A DNA stretch of 64,000 nucleotides from NCBI GenBank assembly GCA_964358705.1, contig CAYHPL010000001.1, forward strand, positions 129,202-193,201, read 5' to 3'. This DNA comes from an uncultured Chitinophagales bacterium (lineage in GTDB: Bacteria > Bacteroidota > Ignavibacteria > UBA10030 > F1-140-MAGs086). Every line of letters begins with the position of its first letter. Position 1 is the stretch's first letter. The position numbers and the translations under genes are program-made. The notes under the pieces are model-generated. The model made no database searches. It was not told the origin of the DNA and worked only from the letters and a program-made list of their open reading frames with translations. Shown here piece by piece: positions 4,384-28,060 of the stretch.

Positions 4384-6576
4384 ATGAAAAAAATATCTTT
4401 GTATCCGCACACAGTGAGAAATTTGTTTTCACTGATGATGTTATTTGTTTTATACGCTGTCTCAGTTGGAGCGCAGCAGAAGCAAAAATTTATTGATGAA
4501 GTGCTTGTCGCTGTTCCACAAAAAACACTTCGGAACTTACAATCAATTGTACCAAACGCAGTACATCTTTACCAGCGATTGCCGGATGTGTACATTGCAG
4601 GGATGGAGAAAAAAACGGTAAAATATTTACAAAAGAAAAGAATGTCCGTTGAAGTAATTGATGAATATCCCTGGCTTGACCGGTACGCAGTTGTTGAAGA
4701 ATTCATTTCGGCTCCGTATTTGCGTATAGAAGATTTGGCGAAAGTACTCTTGCGTACAGATGATATATGTGTTGTCAAAGGTACAATGCAAACATTTGAA
4801 AATTTAAAACGAGCCGGATATTCTTTTGCAGAAATGGAGAGAAAAGAAATTGAATATGCAAGAACGAAAATATTGATGCCAGTAAATTTTACATTACAAA
4901 AGTATGAAACAATAGATAGTATTATTTCTTTTGTTTCCGATACATCAATACGCGATTATATTCAGCAAATGCAAAATTTCGGCACACGTCATTGGAATCA
5001 GCCGAATCGCGATAGTGTGTTTCGCTGGGTGAAAAATAAATTTCTCGCAACGGGAATTACTGATGTGCAGTATGACAGTTTTTCATACAACAGCACGTGG
5101 CAAAAAAATATTATTGCAACAATTCCCGGTTCGCTTGACCCATCTGCAGAAATGATAGTTGGAGGACATCTTGATTCGTACTCATCAAATCAGCAGCAAG
5201 CGCCCGGTGCAGATGATAACGCAAGCGGTACTGCCGCGGCGCTCGAAATGGCGCGTGTACTGAAACTTGTGAATTATCAACCGTCGTTCACTTTTCGATT
5301 TATGGGATTTGCCGCAGAAGAAGCCGGATTGCGCGGCAGTGCGGATTATGCAGCGAAAGCAGACGCACAAGACAGAGATATTCGCGCAATGTTAAATTAT
5401 GATATGATTGCCAACCGCACGCAATCGCAATCCGATAGAGATTATTTGCAAGTGTGGTACGAAGGCGCGAAAAGTTTCTCGGATGTACATTCACAAATAG
5501 CAATAATGTACACAACGCTGACACCTGTTTTCACAACACAATATCGCAGTGGCAGCGATAGTTGGTCTTTTTATCAACACGGTTACCCTGCAACGTTTTG
5601 CATTGAAAGAGATTTTTCACCGTACTATCATTCGCCGAATGACCAGTTGCAATATCTTGATATGATGTATGCGAAAGATATTGTGAAATCAGGTCTTGCT
5701 ACATTACTGACGCTTGATATGCTTCCGCCGAATGTAAGAAATTTATCAGCGCGGGATAAAGGAAACGGCACGTCCATTTTTATATCGTGGGATAGTGTAA
5801 AAGTTCCGGATTGGAGTACGTACAAAATATATGTCGGTACTTCTTCCGGAAATTACGATACAAATTTTACTGTCACATCACGTACAAAATTTATTACCGG
5901 ATTAACACAGAACTTACAATATTTTATCGGCGTTTCTATCGTTGATTTGGTTGGAAGAGAAGGAATGATTTCAGAAATTTCTGCAACACCGCGAGTGATT
6001 CCGAATGCGCCGACAGGAATTACTGCTACACCGATATTGTGGTCAATCATTTTATCGTGGAATAATAATCGCGAAATGGATATGCACTCATACAAATTAT
6101 ATCGCGCTGTTTCTCCTTCAACGGAGTTTACGTTGTATTCCACGTTGCCGTATCCTGATACGATGTTTGTTGAAGATGACACTATCAGTGCAGGATTGTA
6201 TTCGTACTTTGTAACCGCCATTGATTCCGCTGGAAATGAAAGTGCAACATCGGATACAGTTTCTGCAAGCCCGATAACAGATGTTCACGAAGGAAATGAA
6301 AGCAATCCGACAGAAATTACGTTGATGCAAAATTTTCCGAATCCGTTCAATCCGCAAACGGTTATTGGTTTTTCACTGTTGGCTTCCGGGAATGTATCAT
6401 TGAAAGTATTTGATGTTCTGGGAAGAGAAGTTGCAACGCTGTTATACAATGAAACAATGCAAGCCGGAAAACACGAAATACAATTTGATGCAAGCGCACT
6501 GACAAGCGGTGTGTATGTGTATCAATTAACAACGCAGAAAAAAACACTGACACACAAAATGCTTTTGATGAAATAA
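4384..6576 (+). CDS. M28-family zinc aminopeptidase with FN3-like domains and T9SS C-terminal sorting domain
   Basis: M28 motifs HLDS, GADDNASG, FMGFAAEEAGLRGS. C-terminal FPNPFNPQTVIGF...HKMLLMK is a T9SS C-terminal domain. Signal peptide begins at MKKISL (4384); the hairpin at 4330-4349 argues against the listed 4336 start. Confidence 0.8.
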   Translation: MKKISLYPHTVRNLFSLMMLFVLYAVSVGAQQKQKFIDEVLVAVPQKTLRNLQSIVPNAVHLYQRLPDVYIAGMEKKTVKYLQKKRMSVEVIDEYPWLDRYAVVEEFISAPYLRIEDLAKVLLRTDDICVVKGTMQTFENLKRAGYSFAEMERKEIEYARTKILMPVNFTLQKYETIDSIISFVSDTSIRDYIQQMQNFGTRHWNQPNRDSVFRWVKNKFLATGITDVQYDSFSYNSTWQKNIIATIPGSLDPSAEMIVGGHLDSYSSNQQQAPGADDNASGTAAALEMARVLKLVNYQPSFTFRFMGFAAEEAGLRGSADYAAKADAQDRDIRAMLNYDMIANRTQSQSDRDYLQVWYEGAKSFSDVHSQIAIMYTTLTPVFTTQYRSGSDSWSFYQHGYPATFCIERDFSPYYHSPNDQLQYLDMMYAKDIVKSGLATLLTLDMLPPNVRNLSARDKGNGTSIFISWDSVKVPDWSTYKIYVGTSSGNYDTNFTVTSRTKFITGLTQNLQYFIGVSIVDLVGREGMISEISATPRVIPNAPTGITATPILWSIILSWNNNREMDMHSYKLYRAVSPSTEFTLYSTLPYPDTMFVEDDTISAGLYSYFVTAIDSAGNESATSDTVSASPITDVHEGNESNPTEITLMQNFPNPFNPQTVIGFSLLASGNVSLKVFDVLGREVATLLYNETMQAGKHEIQFDASALTSGVYVYQLTTQKKTLTHKMLLMK

Positions 6577-7544: not shown

Positions 7545-7900
7545 GTCGAATAATAGATACATTTCATTTACAGCATTTCGGGACGGTCTTATTTAATTTG
7601 AATGCCAAATGATTTTGGTTGACACTCATTAATGAGAGCCATAACAGCTCCAATTTTATTTGGTCGTGATAGCTGATAAGTTTAAGAATCGTAATTGAGA
7701 GATTTCTCCTTCTTGCTGAACTCTTTGAAAAGAGTATAATGAGTGGTTTGAGCATTAGTTTCGTTAAATAAATTTTGAATTTTTTATTTGTATTTGAAAT
7801 CCATTCGGCTGTCAATTTGCACCAATCCGTTTTTGATTAAGCATTGGCGATTTGGCACATTTGCTTTTGCAGCCATTGAAACGTCCTAAAATGCGTTGGC

Positions 7901-10333
7901 TTATTTTTTCCAGTCATATTTTACGCTTCCACAATTACAACGAATTTTACTATTTACATTGTCAAAATTTTTCAATGCAACAAAGGATTTGCATTTTTCC
8001 TCTGAGCAATAAAATGTCTTGATTAGCTTTTTCACATCTTCCCAAAATACTTCAAGGTCGTTTATGTTTTCTTTAAATGAATTGTCATGTGAGGTTTTAT
8101 TTCCTATTAGAATTGGCGAAGCCAGAATACTATCAATGTTATTTTTTGTTTTCAAGTCTGCTGGTGATTGCTTGTTCACTCTGCTTTGAATAGAAGACAA
8201 AAGTTCATTCATCATTCTTTCCTCATTTCTGTCATTGAAACGAAATGCAAGGCCTGCTTCTATGTTAAATGCAATCTGTTTTAATTGTCTTTCAGCATAA
8301 CGTCTAATGTCATTACCAAGTCCATCAATATTCTTTGCCTTGAACTTGCCTTCAATTTTGGTTCTCAAATCTACAAGCGGAGTTTCAAAACTTGTTCCTT
8401 TTTCCGCTGTCCAAGAAAGTGATTTTATTACCCAATTATTCTTTTTTGCTTCACTTGAAGCAATATCAAAAAAATCTTTCTCGTGAGTTAATAATATGAT
8501 TTGAAAATCACTGAACTTATTTATTAGGAGTCGAATAAATCTTGTTCTATGCGTACTGTCAAAGCTTGAAATGACATCATCCAAAACAAAAAAATCATTT
8601 TCTTTATTAAATGCTTTAACAGAAGCCAAGAAGAAAGATAACCCTAAGCAATTTATATGACTTTCACTTAATAATGCAACTGGCGGTGTTTGCCTTTCGT
8701 TGTAAAATGTATATTCAATTGTAATTCCAGAGAGTTCGTCATTTTTGTCTTTAATTGGAACAAGCTTAATATCTTCAATTTTTTCATTCGGATTCATTTC
8801 AGTGTAAAAGCTGTTTATTTCATCCGAAAACATTGTTAAAAAACCTTCTAATGATTCTTCCTGCTTTTTTATAAAGTCAGTGTATAGGGCTTCGAAAGTT
8901 ACTTGCTGTTTAGTTAATATTTCTTCCTCTCTTTCAAGTTTCTTGTGAGCCACATAAGCGTCTAAAGCCCTTGAAAGTTTTGTATGTATATGTAATTTTT
9001 TGTTTTCCTTAATACTATCAGAAAGTGTTTTGGATTTTACTCTGGAGATGGAAATTAAGCCCTTAATTTCTTTGTCGTCAATTTTGATAAGCGAAAATTC
9101 TCTTAAAGGTTCGGTTGAAAAAATATCTTTTTTCAAATCTTCGCCAATAACTTTTATAGAATTTTGAATTTGCTCAATCGTCTTTTTTGTTGCTTCGTTT
9201 TCCTTTTCAGCAAGATGCTTTTCTTTTAGCAAACCGCTAATTACTGTATAGTTATTGCGAAGCAGCTTAGTAAGCTCTTCGCATTCTTCATTTAGTTTAT
9301 CTTGCTCTGCTTTAATTTCTTTTAAATCTTCAACTCTTTGATTTAATTCTTGTGCAAGTTTGAGTTTGTCCTTTTCTTGTTGACACAATGGACAAAAATT
9401 ATCTTTTACGATGTCCATTTTAATAACCTTTAAACCTTCCGAGAGTAATGCCAGTAGTTGAAGTTTACTTATTTTATCTGCATCTTTCCTTAATGCGATA
9501 AAGGATTTATAATAGTCATTGTATAAACTATGAATATTTGAAATCTCAATTTCTAAATCAGTTAATGTGTCCGCTATTTTGTTATGAAATGCAATTTGCT
9601 CAACAACTATTGTATCCTCTTTTGTTTCAATTGATTTAAGTGCAGTTTTTACATCCTTAAAAGATTTTATGTCCTTTTCAAGTTTTAATGGTGCAATTAC
9701 TTTCAATGCAGTTTCAAAAAACTGTTTTGAAGATGTTATATTTTGCCCCAAACTCTCTAAAAGAATTGCTTGTTGAGCACTTCGTTTATTACTAAATCCA
9801 CCAGCTTTTATTACTCGGGCAATTCGTCCGCCAACAAGCTTTAATAAACTGCGTAATTCTTGCACTTGGCTAAAGCCAATTATATTTTGTAAATGTTTTA
9901 GTTTGTCTCCTTTGGTTGCTATAATAAACTGAACCAAATCTCTGTATCGAAGAATTAAGTTCTCCGATTGCGATTGACTAAAATAACTTGCAAACTCCTT
10001 TGAGCTATTTGAGTTAAATGTTTTAAATAAATTGTTTATTGACTTTTCATTGTCAAGTAACCTGTTTGAATATTGAATTTCAATTTTTGCTTCATCACTT
10101 GGATTGAGAAATACATTTCTTAATGCGTTTTTTCCCTTGCCTCCAACTTCTTCTCCTGTCAAATGTTCAATGCTATCTTTATAGAACCACTCTAAAGCAT
10201 CTGTAATTGAACTTTTACCTGTTCCATTGTCGCCATAAATTAGTAAAGACTTCTTGTCGAGAGAAAGATTTAAACCTTCTCTAACACCTCTGATACCTGT
10301 GATGTTTATTGATTTAATTTTGTTCTTACTCAT
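7901..10333 (-). CDS. Rad50/SbcC-like SMC-family ATPase with zinc hook and C-terminal zinc ribbon (candidate defence ATPase)
   Basis: N-terminal Walker A (GDNGTGKSS), then a ~400-aa K/E/L-rich coiled-coil with a central CPLC hook. C-terminal ABC signature-like LSESH, Walker B (FFVLDDV), D-loop (SSFD), H-loop (LLTHE), then a ~170-aa tail with CSEEKC..CNCGS. The ATG at 10333 is preferred over the TTG at 10345. Confidence 0.75.
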   Translation of the reverse strand: MSKNKIKSINITGIRGVREGLNLSLDKKSLLIYGDNGTGKSSITDALEWFYKDSIEHLTGEEVGGKGKNALRNVFLNPSDEAKIEIQYSNRLLDNEKSINNLFKTFNSNSSKEFASYFSQSQSENLILRYRDLVQFIIATKGDKLKHLQNIIGFSQVQELRSLLKLVGGRIARVIKAGGFSNKRSAQQAILLESLGQNITSSKQFFETALKVIAPLKLEKDIKSFKDVKTALKSIETKEDTIVVEQIAFHNKIADTLTDLEIEISNIHSLYNDYYKSFIALRKDADKISKLQLLALLSEGLKVIKMDIVKDNFCPLCQQEKDKLKLAQELNQRVEDLKEIKAEQDKLNEECEELTKLLRNNYTVISGLLKEKHLAEKENEATKKTIEQIQNSIKVIGEDLKKDIFSTEPLREFSLIKIDDKEIKGLISISRVKSKTLSDSIKENKKLHIHTKLSRALDAYVAHKKLEREEEILTKQQVTFEALYTDFIKKQEESLEGFLTMFSDEINSFYTEMNPNEKIEDIKLVPIKDKNDELSGITIEYTFYNERQTPPVALLSESHINCLGLSFFLASVKAFNKENDFFVLDDVISSFDSTHRTRFIRLLINKFSDFQIILLTHEKDFFDIASSEAKKNNWVIKSLSWTAEKGTSFETPLVDLRTKIEGKFKAKNIDGLGNDIRRYAERQLKQIAFNIEAGLAFRFNDRNEERMMNELLSSIQSRVNKQSPADLKTKNNIDSILASPILIGNKTSHDNSFKENINDLEVFWEDVKKLIKTFYCSEEKCKSFVALKNFDNVNSKIRCNCGSVKYDWKK

Positions 10334-10529
10334 CTTCTTTGTCAATTTGTTTTAATTCCTTCTGAACTATTTCGTCCAAAGTGTTTTGAACATTTTTATC
10401 AGAAAGTTTTCCCTGACTGTAAAGCTCAACTAATGCATCAACGGTCTTTTTGTCGGCATTCGGAATATTATAGATTTCTGCAAAAAAATCATCAATTACG
10501 TCCTTTCCACTTTTTATATTATCGTCCAT
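10326..10529 (-). CDS. small acidic protein (67 aa), middle gene of the cassette
   Basis: Sits between the GIY-YIG and ATPase genes. Its stop overlaps the ATPase ATG (ATGAGTAA). Rich in D/E/K; no recognisable domain. The listed ORF start is a TTG; the internal ATG (MDDNIK) is preferred. Confidence 0.45.
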   Translation of the reverse strand: MDDNIKSGKDVIDDFFAEIYNIPNADKKTVDALVELYSQGKLSDKNVQNTLDEIVQKELKQIDKEDE

Positions 10530-10539
10530 AGTATTTGTT

Positions 10540-10995
10540 TTATTCAAAGTATTTCCAATCAATTATAAAATTTGCTTTTATCTTTTTTTCTAAAATTTCA
10601 AATCCTGATTTGTTGTTGCAAATCGGGTAAACACCATACTTTTCAACAAAGTCAAGAATAAAATAGCTTTCCAAATCTTCTATTCTATATTCCCAAAAGC
10701 TTTTAAGCATTTCAAAATTTATTATCGTGAATTTAAGTTGTCCAACTTTTCTATAATTTACAAGTCCTAAGTTTTTACTTTTTCCTTCAAAGTGACCAGT
10801 CAGCCGACTTCCCATACTATTCGTTTTTTTCTCACTCATTCCAATGTAAAGTAATTTTGATTTTTTGAATGGATATTGAATTTCGCATTCCGTTGTGAAA
10901 ATGAAATATAGTCCCACCAAACCTGCAAGAGGTTTGATATTTTGAATTTCAAAAGTCTTAGGCGTGTCAAAGTATATATTGAATTCATTTGTCAT
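10540..10995 (-). CDS. minimal GIY-YIG nuclease-domain protein
   Basis: GLYFIF...(18 aa)...LLYIGMS...RLTGHF plus downstream conserved E and N (ICNNK). Genuine ATG start. Confidence 0.7.
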   Translation of the reverse strand: MTNEFNIYFDTPKTFEIQNIKPLAGLVGLYFIFTTECEIQYPFKKSKLLYIGMSEKKTNSMGSRLTGHFEGKSKNLGLVNYRKVGQLKFTIINFEMLKSFWEYRIEDLESYFILDFVEKYGVYPICNNKSGFEILEKKIKANFIIDWKYFE

Positions 10996-11592
10996 ACGGT
11001 TGATGTACGGTCGGGTAAAAGCAAATGTGCTGCAACTGTGTTGGCTTGTGGGTGGAGATGCAGTATTTTTTTATTTTTCTGATGCGTTGGATTTTTTGTT
11101 CATTTTTCTGTCAGTCTGTTTGATGTTGCACCGTCGTCACAGCATTACTCCAACATCTAATATGCGCTACAAATATATTTTTTATAGCGCAAATCCGCAA
11201 TAAAAGTGTTGGATTAACGCAGGTTTTTGGCTTTTTGAGTAGTGCATATCTACAGCAGTTTATCAAATGGCTATTGTCGTTAAATATTTCTTTGTTTCTT
11301 CTGTAAAGATTTTTCGTGGTTGAAAATTGGCTTCATTTTCTTTGGCAAAAGATAGGGATTGCGGAGAAATAGTGCAAGGGGAAAGAAATCCCGCTCACTC
11401 ACTTTTCAATGGAGAATTATTGCACAGGTATCAGATTACGTATATCGTAAATCTCAAATCCCCGATTTTCATATTGTAGCATAATCAATATTTCTTTCGC
11501 TCCACAAATCTAAAAAGGAAAAATGTTCTTTGTATATTTTCGCGCAATTTTTAGAATGCACAACGAGTTTTCCCCACGATTTTTTTTAAAGA

Positions 11593-14460
11593 ATGAACGT
11601 AAAAACATTTACCGAAGACCAATTCGCAGCTCGCCATATTGGTCCCGATGAAACGCAAACACAAGATATGCTTGCAACTATTGGCGTGCAATCTCTTGAC
11701 ACACTTATAGCGCAGACAGTTCCGGAAAATATACGATTGCAAACACCGCTGCAATTGCCTGAAGCAATGAGCGAATACCGCTATCTGAGGCACATCCGCG
11801 AAGTGGCGGATAAAAATGCAGTATTTGCAACATACATTGGAATGGGGTACTACGATTGTATCGTGCCATCCGTAATACAAAGAAATATTTTTGAAAATCC
11901 CGGATGGTACACGCAATACACACCGTATCAGGCAGAAATCGCACAGGGTCGTTTGGAAGCGTTGCTGAATTTTCAAACGATGATAATTGATTTGACGAAA
12001 ATGGACGTTGCAAATGCATCATTGCTCGATGAAGGTACAGCCGCCGCAGAAGCAATGCAAATGATGTATGGGATTGTCAATAAAAATGCTGAGACAAGGA
12101 ATAAATTTTTTATCAGCGAACAGTGTTTTCCGCAAACTATTGACGTATTGCGTTCTCGTGCATCAGCGCATCGGTTTGAACTTATTCTTGGAAATCCGGA
12201 AACTACACAGATTGATGAAACATTTTTTGGCGCATTATTGCAATATCCCGATGCAAACGGCGAGGTGAGCGATTACAGAAAATTTATTGAACAAACACAC
12301 CGTGCTGGTGCGTTGGTTGCTGTTGCATCCGACTTGCTCAGTCTTGTGCTGATAACGCCGCCGGGAGAATTTGGCGCAGATATTGTCATTGGAAATTCAC
12401 AACGCTTTGGTGTGCCACTTGGATTCGGAGGACCGCACGCTGCATTTTTTGCTACACGAAATGAATTTATCCGCCAGATGCCCGGCAGAATAATCGGCGT
12501 TTCTGTTGATGTGCATAATAATCCTGCATTGCGCATGACATTGCAAACCCGCGAACAACACATTCGCAGAGAAAAAGCCACTTCAAATATTTGTACTGCG
12601 CAGGCATTACTTGCAATTATGGCGGGTATGTACGCTGTCTATCATGGCGCAGTTGGTTTGCAACGGATTGCAACCAATGTTCATCTTCTGGCTGTACTGC
12701 TTGAAAAAAAATTGCAGAATCTTGGTTATGAACAGGTCAATAAAATTTATTTCGATACGTTGAAAGTAAAAGTATCTTCAATTGAAAAAATAAAATTCAT
12801 TGCAGAAAAAAAAGAAATTAATTTCCGCTATTTTGATGATGCATTTGTTGGGATTTCGCTTGATGAAACAACCCAGCCCGAAGAGGTAGAAAAAATTATT
12901 TCTGTTTTTGCAGAAGCGCAATCGAAAGAATTTTCTGCAAATGACGTTACAGAAATTGATACAGTGCTTCCGCCGCAATTCGCCCGCAGAAGTGAATTTT
13001 TAACGCATCCGGTATTTCATTCATATCATTCCGAAACTGAAATGATGCGGTACATTAAAAAATTGGAGAACCGCGATTTATCATTAACACATTCGATGAT
13101 TCCTTTGGGTTCGTGCACAATGAAACTCAATGCTGCAACGGAGTTGCTTCCAATTACATGGAAAAAATTTTCCAAGATGCATCCGTTTGTTCCTCCATAT
13201 CAAGCAGAGGGATATTTTGAAATTTTTCGTGAACTTGAAAAATCATTATGCAGTATTACAGGACTTGATGCATGTTCATTGCAACCAAATTCCGGAGCGC
13301 AGGGAGAGTACGCGGGGCTGATGGTTATTCGCGCATATCATCACGATAGCAATGAATCCTTTCGCAACATTGCTTTGATTCCATCTTCTGCGCACGGTAC
13401 AAATCCTGCAAGCGCAGTAATGGCGGGATTCAAAGTTGTCGTCATAAAATGTGATGAGTTGGGAAATATTGATGTTCAGGATTTGCGCATAAAAGCAGAA
13501 GAAAATAAAGATTCGTTGGCTGCATTGCTTGTTACGTATCCATCCACGCATGGAGTGTTTGAAGAAAGTATTCAGGAAATTTGCTCCATAATTCATCGCA
13601 ATGGCGGGCAAGTATATATGGATGGTGCAAATTTGAATGCACAAGTTGGCTTGACGAGTCCCGGAAGAATAGGCGCGGATGTGTGTCATATCAATTTGCA
13701 TAAAACTTTTTCAATACCACATGGCGGCGGCGGTCCGGGAATGGGTCCGATTTGTGTTGCACAACATCTTGCGCAATATTTACCGGGACATTCTGTGCAG
13801 AGAAAAGGAACTGAAAAATCTATTCCAGCCGTTTCATCCGCACCGTTTGGCAGCGCAAGTATTGTATTGATTTCGTATGCGTACATCAAAATGCTTGGTG
13901 CGCGGGGTGTTACTGATGCTACAAAATATGCAATACTCAATGCGAATTATCTGAAAGCAAAATTAGAACCACATTTTTCAATTTTATACAAAGGAAAAAA
14001 TGGATTTTGTGCGCATGAATTTATTCTCGACACACGGGAATTTAAACACAGTGCAAATATCGAAGCAGAAGATATTGCAAAGCGATTGATGGATTATGGA
14101 TTTCACGCGCCAACAGTTTCATTTCCGGTGGCTGGAACATTGATGATTTAACCAACAGAAAGCGAATCAAAAGCAGAATTGGATAAATTTATCAACGCAT
14201 TGGTTTCTATTCGAAAGGAAATTCAGGAAATAATTGATGGCAGTGCAGACAAAAATAATAATGTGCTGAAAAATGCGCCTCATACTGATTATGAATCTGT
14301 AAAAGAAATATGGGAACATCCGTATTCGCGTACAAAAGCAGCGTACCCGTTACCATCACTTTATGCAAATAAATTCTGGCCCATCGTCGGACGTATCAAT
14401 AATTCTTATGGCGATAAAAATATTATGTGTTCGTGTCCGCCAGTTGAGGAGTATAAATAG
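11593..14460 (+). pseudogene. gcvP: glycine dehydrogenase (decarboxylating) GcvP, interrupted by an in-frame TAA at 14149-14151
   Basis: The 852-aa ORF ends ...GTLMI*, and [13 protein letters not shown]... continues in the same frame. The 93-aa downstream ORF is the canonical GcvP C-terminus, so TAA replaces the conserved Glu of LMIEPTESE. Confidence 0.8.
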
Positions 14461-25063: not shown

Positions 25064-28060
25064 ATGAATCAGGCACTTACACAAATAAAAATCCTTGTCG
25101 AAGATTTTCAGAAACAGGAATCTGCATTTCTTCATCCCGATTATTCCGAGCAGCAGGTGCGCGAAGATTTCATCAACAAATTTTTCGTCGCGCTTGGTTG
25201 GGATGTTACGCACGTAACGCAGAAAAATCCCTACGAACAGGAAGTAAAAATTGAGAACAAAGTAAAAACCGGCGCAAGTCATCGAAGAGCCGATTATGCA
25301 TTCTTCATTGCTCCAAACTTCCACGATGTTAAATTTTTTGTGGAGGCGAAAAAACCTTCGCGCAATCTTTGCAACGCCGACGATTATTTTCAGACAATTC
25401 GCTACGGATGGAATAAAGGAACGCCGCTCGCAATGCTCACCGATTTTGAAGAATTGCACATTCTCGATTGCCGCTACAAACCCGATATACAAACTGCGCT
25501 CGAAAGAAAAATAGTATCGTATCATTACACCGATTATGCAAACGAAGAAATCTTTGCAAAAATATTTTACCTCTTCAGCCGCAATGCCGTTGCAAATAAT
25601 TCGCTGGAAAGATTTGCTGATACACTTCCCAAACCACGAAAGAAAAACCTAACAGGTTTTCAAAACCTGTTAGGTTTAAAGTCCGTTGACGAAGCATTTC
25701 TCGAACTTCTCGATGAATACCGCGAAACACTTGCAAAAGCATTCAAGAAACACAATCAGCAACTCATAAGCGAAGAACTCACCGAAGCGGTGCAGAGAAC
25801 AATTGACCGGCTTGTATTCATCCGCTTCCTCGAAGATAAACAAATTGAAGAACAGCAAGTTCTCAACTATCGCGCACAACCTTCTGCGTGGAAAGCGTTC
25901 ATTGCACATTGCAAATCCCTCGAACCCAAATACAACGGTCTCGTTTTCAAACCCCACCGCATCATTGATAGCAAAGAATTCGTTCCTCCCGACGACAATT
26001 TATTCGCAGGTATTTGCGACGAACTCTCCGACCCGACTTCGCCGTACGATTTCGACCAGATACCCATTTCCATTCTCGGAAGTATTTACGAACGCTTTCT
26101 CGGAAAAGTAGTACACGCAACACCAAAGCAGGCAAAAGTAGAAGATAAACCCGAATTCCGCAAAGCAGGCGGCGTCTATTACACTCCCGAATACATCGTC
26201 CGCTATATTGTAAGCGAAACAGTAGGAAAAATTTTAAATCCTGAACTCCCCCTTGAAAAGGAAAACGAAGGCGGAGTAGAACATAAATTCCACCTTGAAA
26301 AGGGGGACAAAGTGGGATTATATAAACTTGAATTAAAATCTCCCGAAGAAATTTCCCAACTCTCCTTCGCAGATATTGCATGCGGCTCCGGTTCATTTCT
26401 CATCGAAATATATAGCCAATTGCTCGACCATCATACAAAATATTACAATGCCTTTCCCGAAAAAGCGAAGAAAGGCGAAACAGAAATCCGCGACGGCAAA
26501 ATTGTACTCTCGCTCAAAAAGAAACAGGAAATTCTTCTCAATAATATTTATGGCGTAGATATTGATTTTCAGGCAACCGAAGTAACGCAACTCTCGCTCT
26601 ATTTGAAATTGCTCGAAGACGTAACAATGAACGATGCATTTCAATTCAGTCTGCTCAAAGAAAAAATTCTTCCCGATTTAAGATTCAATATTGTCTGTGG
26701 CAATTCGCTCGTAGATAATGATATCAATGGATTGTTTGCCGAAGAAGAAAAGGAAAAATTAAAGCCAATGAATTTCAGCGATGCGTTTCCAAAGATAATA
26801 AAACAAGGAGGGTTTGATGCGATTGTAGGTAATCCGCCTTGGATTGATATAAAAGGAATGGATCCTTCCGTAGTTGATTATTACTTTAAGAAATATTCAA
26901 CTGTTGAGAATAGAATGAATATTTACGCTGTATTTATTCAGATTGCATTGTCGTTATTGAAAAGAGAAGGAACACTCGGTTATATTACACCAAGTTCTTA
27001 CACTACGCAATCTTCGTACAAACAACTTCGTGAATTATTATTATTGAAATATTCATTTACAAAATTAATTCGTCTTCCGGATAATGTTTTTAAAAACGTC
27101 ATTGCAGAAAGTATAATCTCTATTCTCGAAAATACAAGTAAAAAAAATGATGTAACGGAAGTATTTGTTTACGATGCGAAGAAAAAAATAGATACTATTG
27201 TTTCAGACGAAACGAGTATTCACCATTTCATACAACAAGAGAATTGGAAACAAGATGAAGAAAAGGTTATCAATCTTTTTGTGAATGGAAAAGAAAAACA
27301 TCTCATTACTAAGATAAAACATAATACGAAATCACTCGCACTTTTCTGTGAGTTCAGTTTAGGAATAACACCTTACGATAAATACAAAGGGCATACAAAG
27401 AGTCAAATCAAGAATCGGGAATTCCATTCAACAAAAAAAGAAAATATAACATTCAAACCATTACTGAACGGAGGAAATATTACTCGTTACTTTGTGAGAT
27501 GGGATGGAAAAGAATGGTTAAGTTACGGTGATTGGTTAGGTGCATCACGAGAACAAAAATTTTTTACTTCTGAAAGAATTATAGTTCGACAAATATTGAG
27601 CGGAAATTCTTTACGTATTTATGCTGGTTATACAAATGAAGAATTATATAATACTCAAATTGCTTTCAATCTTGTAAAGAAAGAATCCATTGAAGTTTCT
27701 ATTAAATACTTACTTGCCATTCTCAATTCAAATTTGATGAATTGGTATCATCGCAATAAACATCTTGACCAAACAAAAAATATTTTTCAGAAAATTTTGA
27801 TTGAAAATGCAAAAGAGTTTCCCATTCGCACAATCAATTTCTCCAACACAAAAGAAAAATCCCAACACGACAACATCGTAAAACTTGTCGAATTTATGCT
27901 CGCGCTCAAACAAAAACAATCATCCGCCAAACTCTACTCCGAACTCAATCGCCTCGAAATGCAAATCACATCCACCGACAAACAAATAGACCAAGCCGTG
28001 TACGAATTATACGCCTTAACCGAAGAAGAAATTAAAATTGTAGAAGGAACAACGCCGTAG
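25064..28060 (+). CDS. Type IIG restriction-modification enzyme (MmeI-like: PD-ExK endonuclease + gamma N6-adenine methyltransferase + target-recognition domain in one chain)
   Basis: N-terminal D...EAK nuclease motif (RADYAFF...FFVEAKKP); motif I DIACGSGSFL; motif IV VGNPPWI; ~300-aa C-terminal variable region. Confidence 0.8.
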   Translation: MNQALTQIKILVEDFQKQESAFLHPDYSEQQVREDFINKFFVALGWDVTHVTQKNPYEQEVKIENKVKTGASHRRADYAFFIAPNFHDVKFFVEAKKPSRNLCNADDYFQTIRYGWNKGTPLAMLTDFEELHILDCRYKPDIQTALERKIVSYHYTDYANEEIFAKIFYLFSRNAVANNSLERFADTLPKPRKKNLTGFQNLLGLKSVDEAFLELLDEYRETLAKAFKKHNQQLISEELTEAVQRTIDRLVFIRFLEDKQIEEQQVLNYRAQPSAWKAFIAHCKSLEPKYNGLVFKPHRIIDSKEFVPPDDNLFAGICDELSDPTSPYDFDQIPISILGSIYERFLGKVVHATPKQAKVEDKPEFRKAGGVYYTPEYIVRYIVSETVGKILNPELPLEKENEGGVEHKFHLEKGDKVGLYKLELKSPEEISQLSFADIACGSGSFLIEIYSQLLDHHTKYYNAFPEKAKKGETEIRDGKIVLSLKKKQEILLNNIYGVDIDFQATEVTQLSLYLKLLEDVTMNDAFQFSLLKEKILPDLRFNIVCGNSLVDNDINGLFAEEEKEKLKPMNFSDAFPKIIKQGGFDAIVGNPPWIDIKGMDPSVVDYYFKKYSTVENRMNIYAVFIQIALSLLKREGTLGYITPSSYTTQSSYKQLRELLLLKYSFTKLIRLPDNVFKNVIAESIISILENTSKKNDVTEVFVYDAKKKIDTIVSDETSIHHFIQQENWKQDEEKVINLFVNGKEKHLITKIKHNTKSLALFCEFSLGITPYDKYKGHTKSQIKNREFHSTKKENITFKPLLNGGNITRYFVRWDGKEWLSYGDWLGASREQKFFTSERIIVRQILSGNSLRIYAGYTNEELYNTQIAFNLVKKESIEVSIKYLLAILNSNLMNWYHRNKHLDQTKNIFQKILIENAKEFPIRTINFSNTKEKSQHDNIVKLVEFMLALKQKQSSAKLYSELNRLEMQITSTDKQIDQAVYELYALTEEEIKIVEGTTP

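Follow-up and report, generated by a model that had tools for sequence, protein, structure and literature searches.

Bacterial immunity is now known to use ATPases related to Rad50 as sensors, in systems such as Lamassu, Wadjet and RloC, and how a single sensor of this kind controls its effectors is an active question. In RloC, the hook and the DNA-dependent ATPase act together as an internal switch of the nuclease (PMC3458546), which is itself defined by the pattern 'Arg-X3-Glu-X36-52-His', often with a Ser preceding the His (PMC2610378). In Lamassu, whose genes run in the order LmuA-LmuC-LmuB, the effector is sequestered near the hook of an LmuB dimer, defence depends on ATP binding and on engaged heads as well as on the hook and the nuclease, and the Walker B motif of LmuB reads Asp-Gln, the catalytic Glu being replaced by Gln (bioRxiv 10.1101/2025.03.14.643221). 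Here we describe a three-gene cassette in a stretch of 64,000 nucleotides (nt) from an uncultured Chitinophagales bacterium (GenBank assembly GCA_964358705.1, contig CAYHPL010000001.1, positions 129,202 to 193,201 of the forward strand; this whole stretch is what we call the window). It encodes a GIY-YIG-type protein (gene 1), a small acidic protein (gene 2) and a hook-bearing ATPase fused to a HEPN-like domain and a putative zinc ribbon (gene 3). Most likely it joins the three-gene layout of Lamassu to an ATPase-nuclease fusion of the RloC type, and it is reasonably probable, in our view, that the cassette is a self-contained mobile conflict system, directed against phages or plasmids.

The ATPase is an open reading frame (ORF) of 810 amino acids (aa) on the minus strand, with an ATG at 10333 and an alternative TTG at 10345; a plus-strand reading of 7901-10333 was ruled out, its translation being riddled with stops. 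An earlier note on this DNA, made from the letters alone, had listed here a Walker A motif, a CPLC hook, a signature, a Walker B motif and an H-loop, and all of these are indeed present, though on the minus strand. The four Walker, signature and H-loop elements are separated by a long insert, as in ABC ATPases of the Rad50/SMC type; in keeping with this, Pfam SMC_N matches the protein (E 3.2e-11, 43.5 bits against a cut-off of 40), while NCBIfam and PHROGs searches gave generic P-loop or SbcC matches alone. A word-indexed search returned 557 homologues, nearly all of 803-811 aa, and we counted conservation over 65 sequences, namely the window ATPase and 64 representative full-length homologues whose tail identity goes down to ~26%. 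D585, D586 and H617 occur in 65/65, and the pattern of motifs belongs to a conserved family and is no chance occurrence. The Walker B motif ends in Asp-Asp rather than Asp-Glu, with Asp586 standing where the catalytic Glu is usual, so that slow or altered ATP hydrolysis is plausible; the signature, too, is a variant, LSESH.

The hook lies in the context DNFCPLCQQ (C314-P-L-C317), with C314 and P315 each found in 65/65 sequences, C317 in 64/65 and the pattern CP[LFVI]C likewise in 64/65. In an AlphaFold2 model built from a 28-sequence alignment (mean predicted local distance difference test, pLDDT, of 80), the insert forms a near-continuous helix from residue 155 to 306 and is helical again from 323 to 513, and residues 307-322, which hold the CPLC, are its sole long non-helical loop. 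Each arm is ~150 aa long, and the two presumably pair in antiparallel fashion. The best Foldseek match of the model in the PDB is the full-length Rad50 of Chaetomium (7zr1, E 2.6e-12, 820 columns aligned), ahead of the heads of SMC, condensin, cohesin and JetC; a profile search against PDB sequences found SMC and Rad50 heads only. A crude heptad score on the insert was uninformative, and Pfam Rad50_zn_hook gave a weak match (E 0.025) on a distant relative only. The earlier note's reading of a head-coil-hook-coil-head protein is thus well borne out by SMC_N, by Rad50 7zr1 and by the conserved CPLC, and the structure prediction it had proposed as a check does place the CPLC in a loop between long helices, arm pairing being the part that we infer.

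The same note had set apart the last ~170 aa as a Cys-rich module not found in Rad50 or SbcC, perhaps a zinc ribbon for binding DNA or a partner. The module's absence from Rad50/SbcC holds: when the tail (aa 631-810) was scored against all 1.84 billion representative proteins, the 143 matches all lay at the C-terminus of ~800-aa proteins of the family or in fragments, and the tail therefore belongs to this ATPase family alone. Its description as Cys-rich, however, fits only the final ~37 aa, where FYCSEEKC (at aa 774) and RCNCG (at aa 798) contribute four cysteines, C776, C781, C799 and C801, found in 58-64/65 of the family and invariant in 16 divergent tails; the spacing (Cx2-4C...CxC) and the short beta strands in the model are in keeping with a small zinc ribbon. 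Ahead of it lie ~120 aa that are helical and HEPN-like, with conserved Arg, Glu and His residues, and the proposal of a binding ribbon was to that extent incomplete, since most of the tail is HEPN-like and carries an R-x3-E...S-H arrangement reminiscent of RloC and PrrC.

Members of the HEPN superfamily carry an Ex3[KR] motif on their first helix and Rx4-6H ahead of their last (PMC3710099). The conserved residues of the tail are R677-x3-E681-x3-K685, N703/E704/R706/E710 and G744-N745-x2-S748-H749-D750, and the counts out of 65 are 61 for R677, 64 for E681, 59 for K685, 60 for N703, 61 for R706, 63 for S748 and 64 for H749. The tail thus has the first motif, as E681-R-Q-L-K685, and lacks the Arg of the second, reading G744-N745-K-T-S-H749. 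When a separate model of the tail (pLDDT 73) was submitted to Foldseek, the best PDB neighbour was 2q00 (HEPN-T/PaREP1; probability 0.99, target TM 0.60), and 1o3u and 2hsb, which are also HEPN structures, came within the top 12. In these structures, as in the tail, the first core helix bears Ex3K and a conserved His precedes the last helix; the tail differs in that a loop and short helices are inserted between its core helices and in being fused to an ATPase and a ribbon. The family of 2q00, like the tail, is without the motif Arg, and is listed as one that 'lacks R but H is conserved' (PMC3710099). A Pfam search and a profile search of PDB sequences with the tail found nothing meaningful, an IBR half-RING match (E 0.044) spanning the ribbon only.

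A scan of species genomes recovered distant relatives with 21-26% identity in the ATPase that share the whole architecture, from the ATPase and CxxC hook to the helical tail and the CxxC...CxC ribbon, and four of them read WVRNSVGCH, WIRNKVGCH, LRNAVGAH and IRNLLACH, a textbook HEPN motif, where the window ATPase has IGNKTSH. The groups with and without RNxxxxH can be aligned by hhalign over 154 columns (E 8.5e-5, probability 60%), and because relatives carry RNxxxxH at the aligned site, the family of the window ATPase looks HEPN-derived, its Arg having moved or been lost. Of these two options the column of R677 suggests the former: in an alignment of 16 tails, the 12 that lack the motif Arg have an Arg in this column and the 4 that possess it have Gly, and this complementary pattern suggests that the catalytic Arg was relocated to the first helix rather than simply lost. 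Indeed, the ATPase tails at loci L037, L040, L048, L065 and L077 have a canonical RNxxxxH and no Arg equivalent to R677. A weak Pfam match to PaREP1 also falls in the tail of an acidobacterial relative. Since motifs, predicted fold, relatives with RNxxxxH and weak Pfam matches on relatives all converge, we regard a HEPN ancestry of the tail as probable, more so than the reading of the cassette as a whole; whether it still works as a nuclease, as it putatively might, we rate as an even chance.

The surroundings of these relatives vary: judged by the N-terminal sequence of their neighbours, L039 and L048 follow genes for large SNF2-like helicases, L065 one for an HsdR-like protein and L077 one for a DUF262-like protein. 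Some copies of the ATPase are broken. In L035 (1679-4107) the ORF stops before the tail, which resumes in another frame, and L033 and L042 have broken copies around 5000-6500; all three look like decaying genes.

What defines the system is the pair of partner genes co-transcribed with the ATPase, which the earlier note did not include. In gene 1, G28-x-Y30, Y50-I-G52, R64, H68, E109 and N127 are invariant across 8 sequences down to 42% identity, which we take to be the full catalytic set of GIY-YIG enzymes such as I-TevI and UvrC, and NCBI labels its homologues 'GIY-YIG nuclease family protein'. The protein is a single GIY-YIG-like domain without a C-terminal docking domain. The search returned 1,500 clusters (90% identity) for it, no homologue was found in the phage genomes searched, and an hhalign comparison of the family alignment with an I-TevI sequence was uninformative (probability 0.2), the alignment being too shallow. 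Across phyla gene 1 is 75-83% identical, whereas the ATPases of the same cassettes (L001-L025) are ~52% identical, and this stronger constraint on gene 1 than on the ATPase is unusual. Gene 2 begins 10 nt past the stop codon of gene 1 and ends with an 8-nt overlap into the start of the ATPase gene. A small ORF of 53-80 aa, acidic in most loci, precedes the ATPase in nearly all loci checked, including those of distant and archaeal branches. Branches such as L022, Acidobacteriota and archaea, which have no GIY-YIG gene, retain the tail and its His, and because the small ORF stands ahead of the ATPase in the GIY-YIG-free distant branches, the core of the superfamily is the small protein with the ATPase-HEPN-ribbon protein, the GIY-YIG nuclease having been added in the clade of the window cassette.

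The trio was seen in all the neighbourhoods that we compared, including those of Aequorivita, a 2.9-Mb contig, Imperialibacter, Candidatus Wunengus and Ignavibacterium-like contigs. In a tblastn linkage check of 92 loci, both small genes were present wherever the ATPase had a recognisable tail and intact upstream DNA, the exception being L022 (Bdellovibrionales). Two alphaproteobacterial plasmids carry the trio with the GIY-YIG gene divergent, L093 (NZ_CP080785.1, 3368-6453) and L094 (NZ_CP008817.1, 2323-5402), and since the genes stay linked even though one is inverted, this is good evidence that they work together; in L093 the trio directly adjoins Mu-transposase (TnsB-type)/TniB/TniQ transposition genes, as transposon cargo would.

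The cassette is also horizontally mobile, because its flanks differ, homology ends at its edges, its guanine-plus-cytosine (GC) content is low and its neighbours include genes of mobile types. The flanking genes are different in every genome compared, across many phyla, and the neighbours of one 93%-identical copy are quite unlike those in the window. The closest genome match, at 92% identity, is a metagenome-assembled genome of an uncultured Ignavibacterium (L013, CAYSWN010000054.1). A blastn comparison with L010/L011 (90.6% identity, different flanking genes) ends exactly at 7898 and 11113, and GC content within these limits is 31.2%, against 39.6% for the remaining window. Elsewhere an integrase, restriction-modification methylases, toxin-antitoxin genes or Tn7-like transposition genes are among the neighbours; plasmids, archaea and many bacterial phyla carry the cassette or relatives of it. 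An Rfam search found no match within the island, and a sigma-70 promoter scan, which does not cover promoters of the Bacteroidota/Ignavibacteriota type, found sites no commoner than in shuffled sequence. Downstream of the ATPase lies an 83-aa ORF (7564-7815, minus strand) that is probably not a gene, since it has no match in any library and falls outside the conserved cassette. The coordinates of all features are collected in the table.

Table. Features of the cassette, in window coordinates
Feature	Position	Strand	Description
Whole mobile cassette	7898..11113	-	3.2 kb; three genes and a 5' leader of ~118 bp; limits from blastn
Gene 1, GIY-YIG-type nuclease, putative DNase effector	10540..10995	-	151 aa; sub-threshold Pfam matches, invariant residues, NCBI names
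Gene 2, acidic helical protein	10326..10529	-	67 aa, isoelectric point 4.3; position of a 'middle component'
Gene 3, ATPase	7901..10333	-	810 aa; ABC ATPase (Rad50/LmuB/RloC-like) with a HEPN-like domain and a predicted zinc ribbon fused to it
Walker A, GDNGTGKSS	10208..10234	-	aa 34-42 of the ATPase
Helical coiled-coil insert (predicted)	8795..9871	-	aa 155-513; AlphaFold2 secondary structure, pLDDT mostly 80-92; Foldseek alignment to full-length Rad50
CPLC zinc-hook motif	9383..9394	-	aa 314-317, within the loop of aa 307-322
ABC signature variant, LSESH	8657..8671	-	aa 555-559 of the ATPase
Walker B and D-loop, FFVLDDVISSFD	8558..8593	-	aa 581-592 of the ATPase
H-loop, LLTHE	8480..8494	-	aa 614-618 of the ATPase
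HEPN-like helical domain	8015..8377	-	aa 653-773; conservation, Foldseek, alignment to RNxxxxH relatives
C-terminal four-cysteine zinc ribbon (predicted)	7904..8014	-	aa 774-810; C776, C781, C799, C801

How might such a cassette work? By analogy with RloC and Lamassu, we think of the ATPase as both sensor and regulator, its head halves split by an antiparallel coiled coil with the CPLC at the tip, where two protomers would presumably share one zinc ion. The putative HEPN active site would combine R677 and E681 on the first core helix with S748-H749 before the last helix, the ribbon capping the domain, and gene 2, which may be translationally coupled to the ATPase, would act as an adaptor or inhibitor. 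In the resting state both nucleases would be kept silent by the small protein and by the dimer joined at its hooks. Abnormal DNA, be it ends, breaks or replicating foreign DNA, may then be the trigger, bound by the heads together with ATP in such a way that the coiled coils rearrange; this could switch on the fused HEPN RNase (acting on tRNA or other RNA), release the GIY-YIG DNase, or do both, and so stop the infected cell or the invader. Our tentative reading, which we hold with well short of even confidence, is of an undescribed and very widespread dual-nuclease immune system, in which a hook-dimerised ATPase controls a fused HEPN RNase and a GIY-YIG DNase via an acidic adaptor. If that is so, the three-component logic of Lamassu has been merged with the fusion logic of RloC, and the relatives record a move of the HEPN Arg from Rx4-6H to the first helix, giving the R-x3-E...H triad of PrrC and RloC.

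A good many observations count against the proposed conflict system. For the tail, Foldseek gives weak E-values (0.05-1.6), the pLDDT of the H749 loop is <50, the spacing from Glu to His is 60-70 residues, outside the 36-52 of RloC, and G744 takes the place of the canonical HEPN Arg, so that the domain could be inactive. The Pfam profile of RloC and PrrC, AAA_13, gives no match to the window ATPase at E <= 0.01, and with homologues it reaches 29.5 bits where 36 are required, over profile positions 20-584 of 713, the tail never being covered. Gene 1 in turn stays below both relevant Pfam cut-offs, with PF20815 (GIY_YIG_2) at 1.8e-3 and 18.7 bits against 22.4 and PF01541 (GIY-YIG) at 1.7e-2 and 15.9 bits against 22.6, and the proteins of genes 1 and 2 match no PADLOC model. 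Finally, the window cassette lies between housekeeping genes (moaC-type and gcvP), outside any defence island.

What else could the cassette be? The GIY-YIG protein might be the only effector of a Lamassu/ABC-3C-type system, with the HEPN-like domain and ribbon serving as a non-catalytic platform that replaces the effector's C-terminal docking domain and holds nuclease and small protein until DNA is sensed. The gene order is that of LmuA-LmuC-LmuB (bioRxiv 10.1101/2025.03.14.643221), LmuB is the best defence match of the ATPase among hidden Markov models (HMMs), the HEPN motif Arg is lost, the nuclease, at 151 aa, lacks a docking domain, and its high identity (75-83%, against ~52% for the ATPase) is what one would expect of a tightly bound partner. 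Nonetheless we think this alternative unlikely, if the most serious of those considered here: R677, E681 and S748-H749 exceed parts of Walker A in conservation, which would be unusual for a docking surface, the tail and its His persist in the GIY-YIG-free branches (L022, Acidobacteriota, archaea), so that the tail would have a function of its own, the Walker B motif is Asp-Asp and not the Asp-Gln of LmuB, and HMMs of LmuA and LmuC find nothing.

The absence of the GIY-YIG gene from L022 and from all the distant branches, where the small protein and the ATPase stand as a pair, might also argue for an RloC-type anticodon nuclease with a small regulator, the GIY-YIG gene being a loosely attached accessory or a selfish passenger. 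The layout and triad of RloC do resemble those of the ATPase, and two relatives (L031 and L034) exceed the AAA_13 cut-off with 51 bits against 36, in their ATPase part only. Set against this are the company that the GIY-YIG gene keeps with the ATPase in ~20 independent loci spread over different phyla, a linkage that even its inversion on plasmids leaves intact, cassette boundaries that enclose it, and a length of 151 aa without the DNA-binding extensions typical of homing GIY-YIG enzymes, all of which makes this alternative quite improbable to us. More improbable still, to the point where we give it hardly any weight, is housekeeping DNA repair by an analogue of SbcCD/Mre11-Rad50 with a GIY-YIG nuclease in place of Mre11/SbcD. 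Such a role would agree with the structural match, which is best to Rad50, with the intact hook and ATPase motifs and with the co-transcription of a nuclease gene; yet the distribution is patchy, the flanks differ per genome (with a 93%-identical copy in another context), GC content is low, copies travel on plasmids and beside transposon genes, decayed copies exist, the ATPase carries a fused HEPN-like domain and no Mre11-type phosphoesterase lies nearby. We rejected a repair role on distribution and mobility.

Three further features of the window deserve mention in their own right. The gcvP gene (11593-14460, plus strand) has an in-frame TAA at 14149-14151, at a position that is normally Glu in GcvP (GTLMI*PTESE); the same frame runs on to the usual C-terminus, and the stop is due either to a nonsense mutation or to an error in sequencing. 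Some 15 kb from the cassette, a second low-GC patch encodes a fused restriction-modification enzyme of the Eco57I/MmeI type (998 aa, 25064-28060, plus strand; Eco57I 1.3e-36, N6_Mtase, TaqI_C). The window also encodes Por_Secre_tail proteins, which, taken with the Ignavibacterium match at L013, suggest a source organism of the Ignavibacteriota/Bacteroidota type.

As to why all this might matter, a small (3.2 kb) and very widespread cassette that pairs one sensor with two different putative nucleases would be a compact model for effector control. The superfamily, moreover, offers a natural series for the evolution of the HEPN active site, with the canonical RNxxxxH in some members, the Arg on helix 1 in others, and forms with and without the GIY-YIG gene. 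Even if the cassette should turn out to be merely RloC-like or Lamassu-like, thousands of genes now labelled 'AAA family ATPase' and 'hypothetical' would gain an annotation. Our literature search found no paper joining Lamassu, LmuA and GIY-YIG, and a 2020 classification of ABC ATPases may already mention the family.

It remains to place the cassette among the systems that it most resembles. Rad50/SbcC with Mre11/SbcD shares the fold and the hook, has Rad50 as the top structural match, and likewise has a nuclease partner, here encoded nearby in the cassette; by comparison, the coiled coil of the window ATPase is much shorter, a tail is added and the distribution is mobile and patchy, and no Mre11/SbcD phosphoesterase (metallophosphatase) was found in any neighbourhood examined. 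The closest architecture is that of RloC and not of plain Rad50. In RloC (Davidov & Kaufmann 2008, Klaiman 2012), which is of similar size at ~800 aa, the parts come in the same order, from Walker A through a coiled coil with a CxxC hook to the signature, Walker B and H-loop and then a C-terminal nuclease-type domain of ~150 aa; both proteins have R-x3-E on one helix and S-H further along, and K44/C291/D572/R692/E696/H737 of GkaRloC nearly superimposes on K40/C314/D585/R677/E681/H749 of the window ATPase. The differences are that the Glu-to-His spacing is longer in the window ATPase, that a four-cysteine ribbon is added and that partner genes (for the acidic and GIY-YIG proteins) are obligatory, whereas RloC, as described, needs no external silencer.

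With Lamassu, or ABC-3C (DdmABC), the cassette has in common the order of effector, small protein and ATPase and a Rad50-like ATPase with a zinc hook. Indeed, the best defence-HMM match of the ATPase is the PADLOC model PDLC03859 for LmuB (1.7e-22, 78 bits), which covers aa 5-631 and 596/611 profile positions, and the HEPN-like domain and ribbon lie beyond it. The size and position of gene 2 (67 aa, overlapping the ATPase start) recall LmuC, without homology to LmuC models, and no cassette protein matches the LmuA or LmuC HMMs of PADLOC; LmuA, moreover, has an effector and a C-terminal docking domain where gene 1 is a bare GIY-YIG domain, and where the LmuB Walker B is D-Q, that of the window ATPase is LDD, with D586 in every sequence counted. 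Strictly speaking, then, the cassette belongs to neither system while resembling both: not to RloC or PrrC, because AAA_13 stays below its cut-off, the triad is spaced differently and a ribbon and partner genes are present, and not to Lamassu, because LmuA and LmuC matches and an effector docking domain are lacking and the Walker B motif is different. Within the wider theme of defence by Rad50-like ATPases, it is best described as a putative defence system, a hybrid of RloC and Lamassu with two candidate nucleases.

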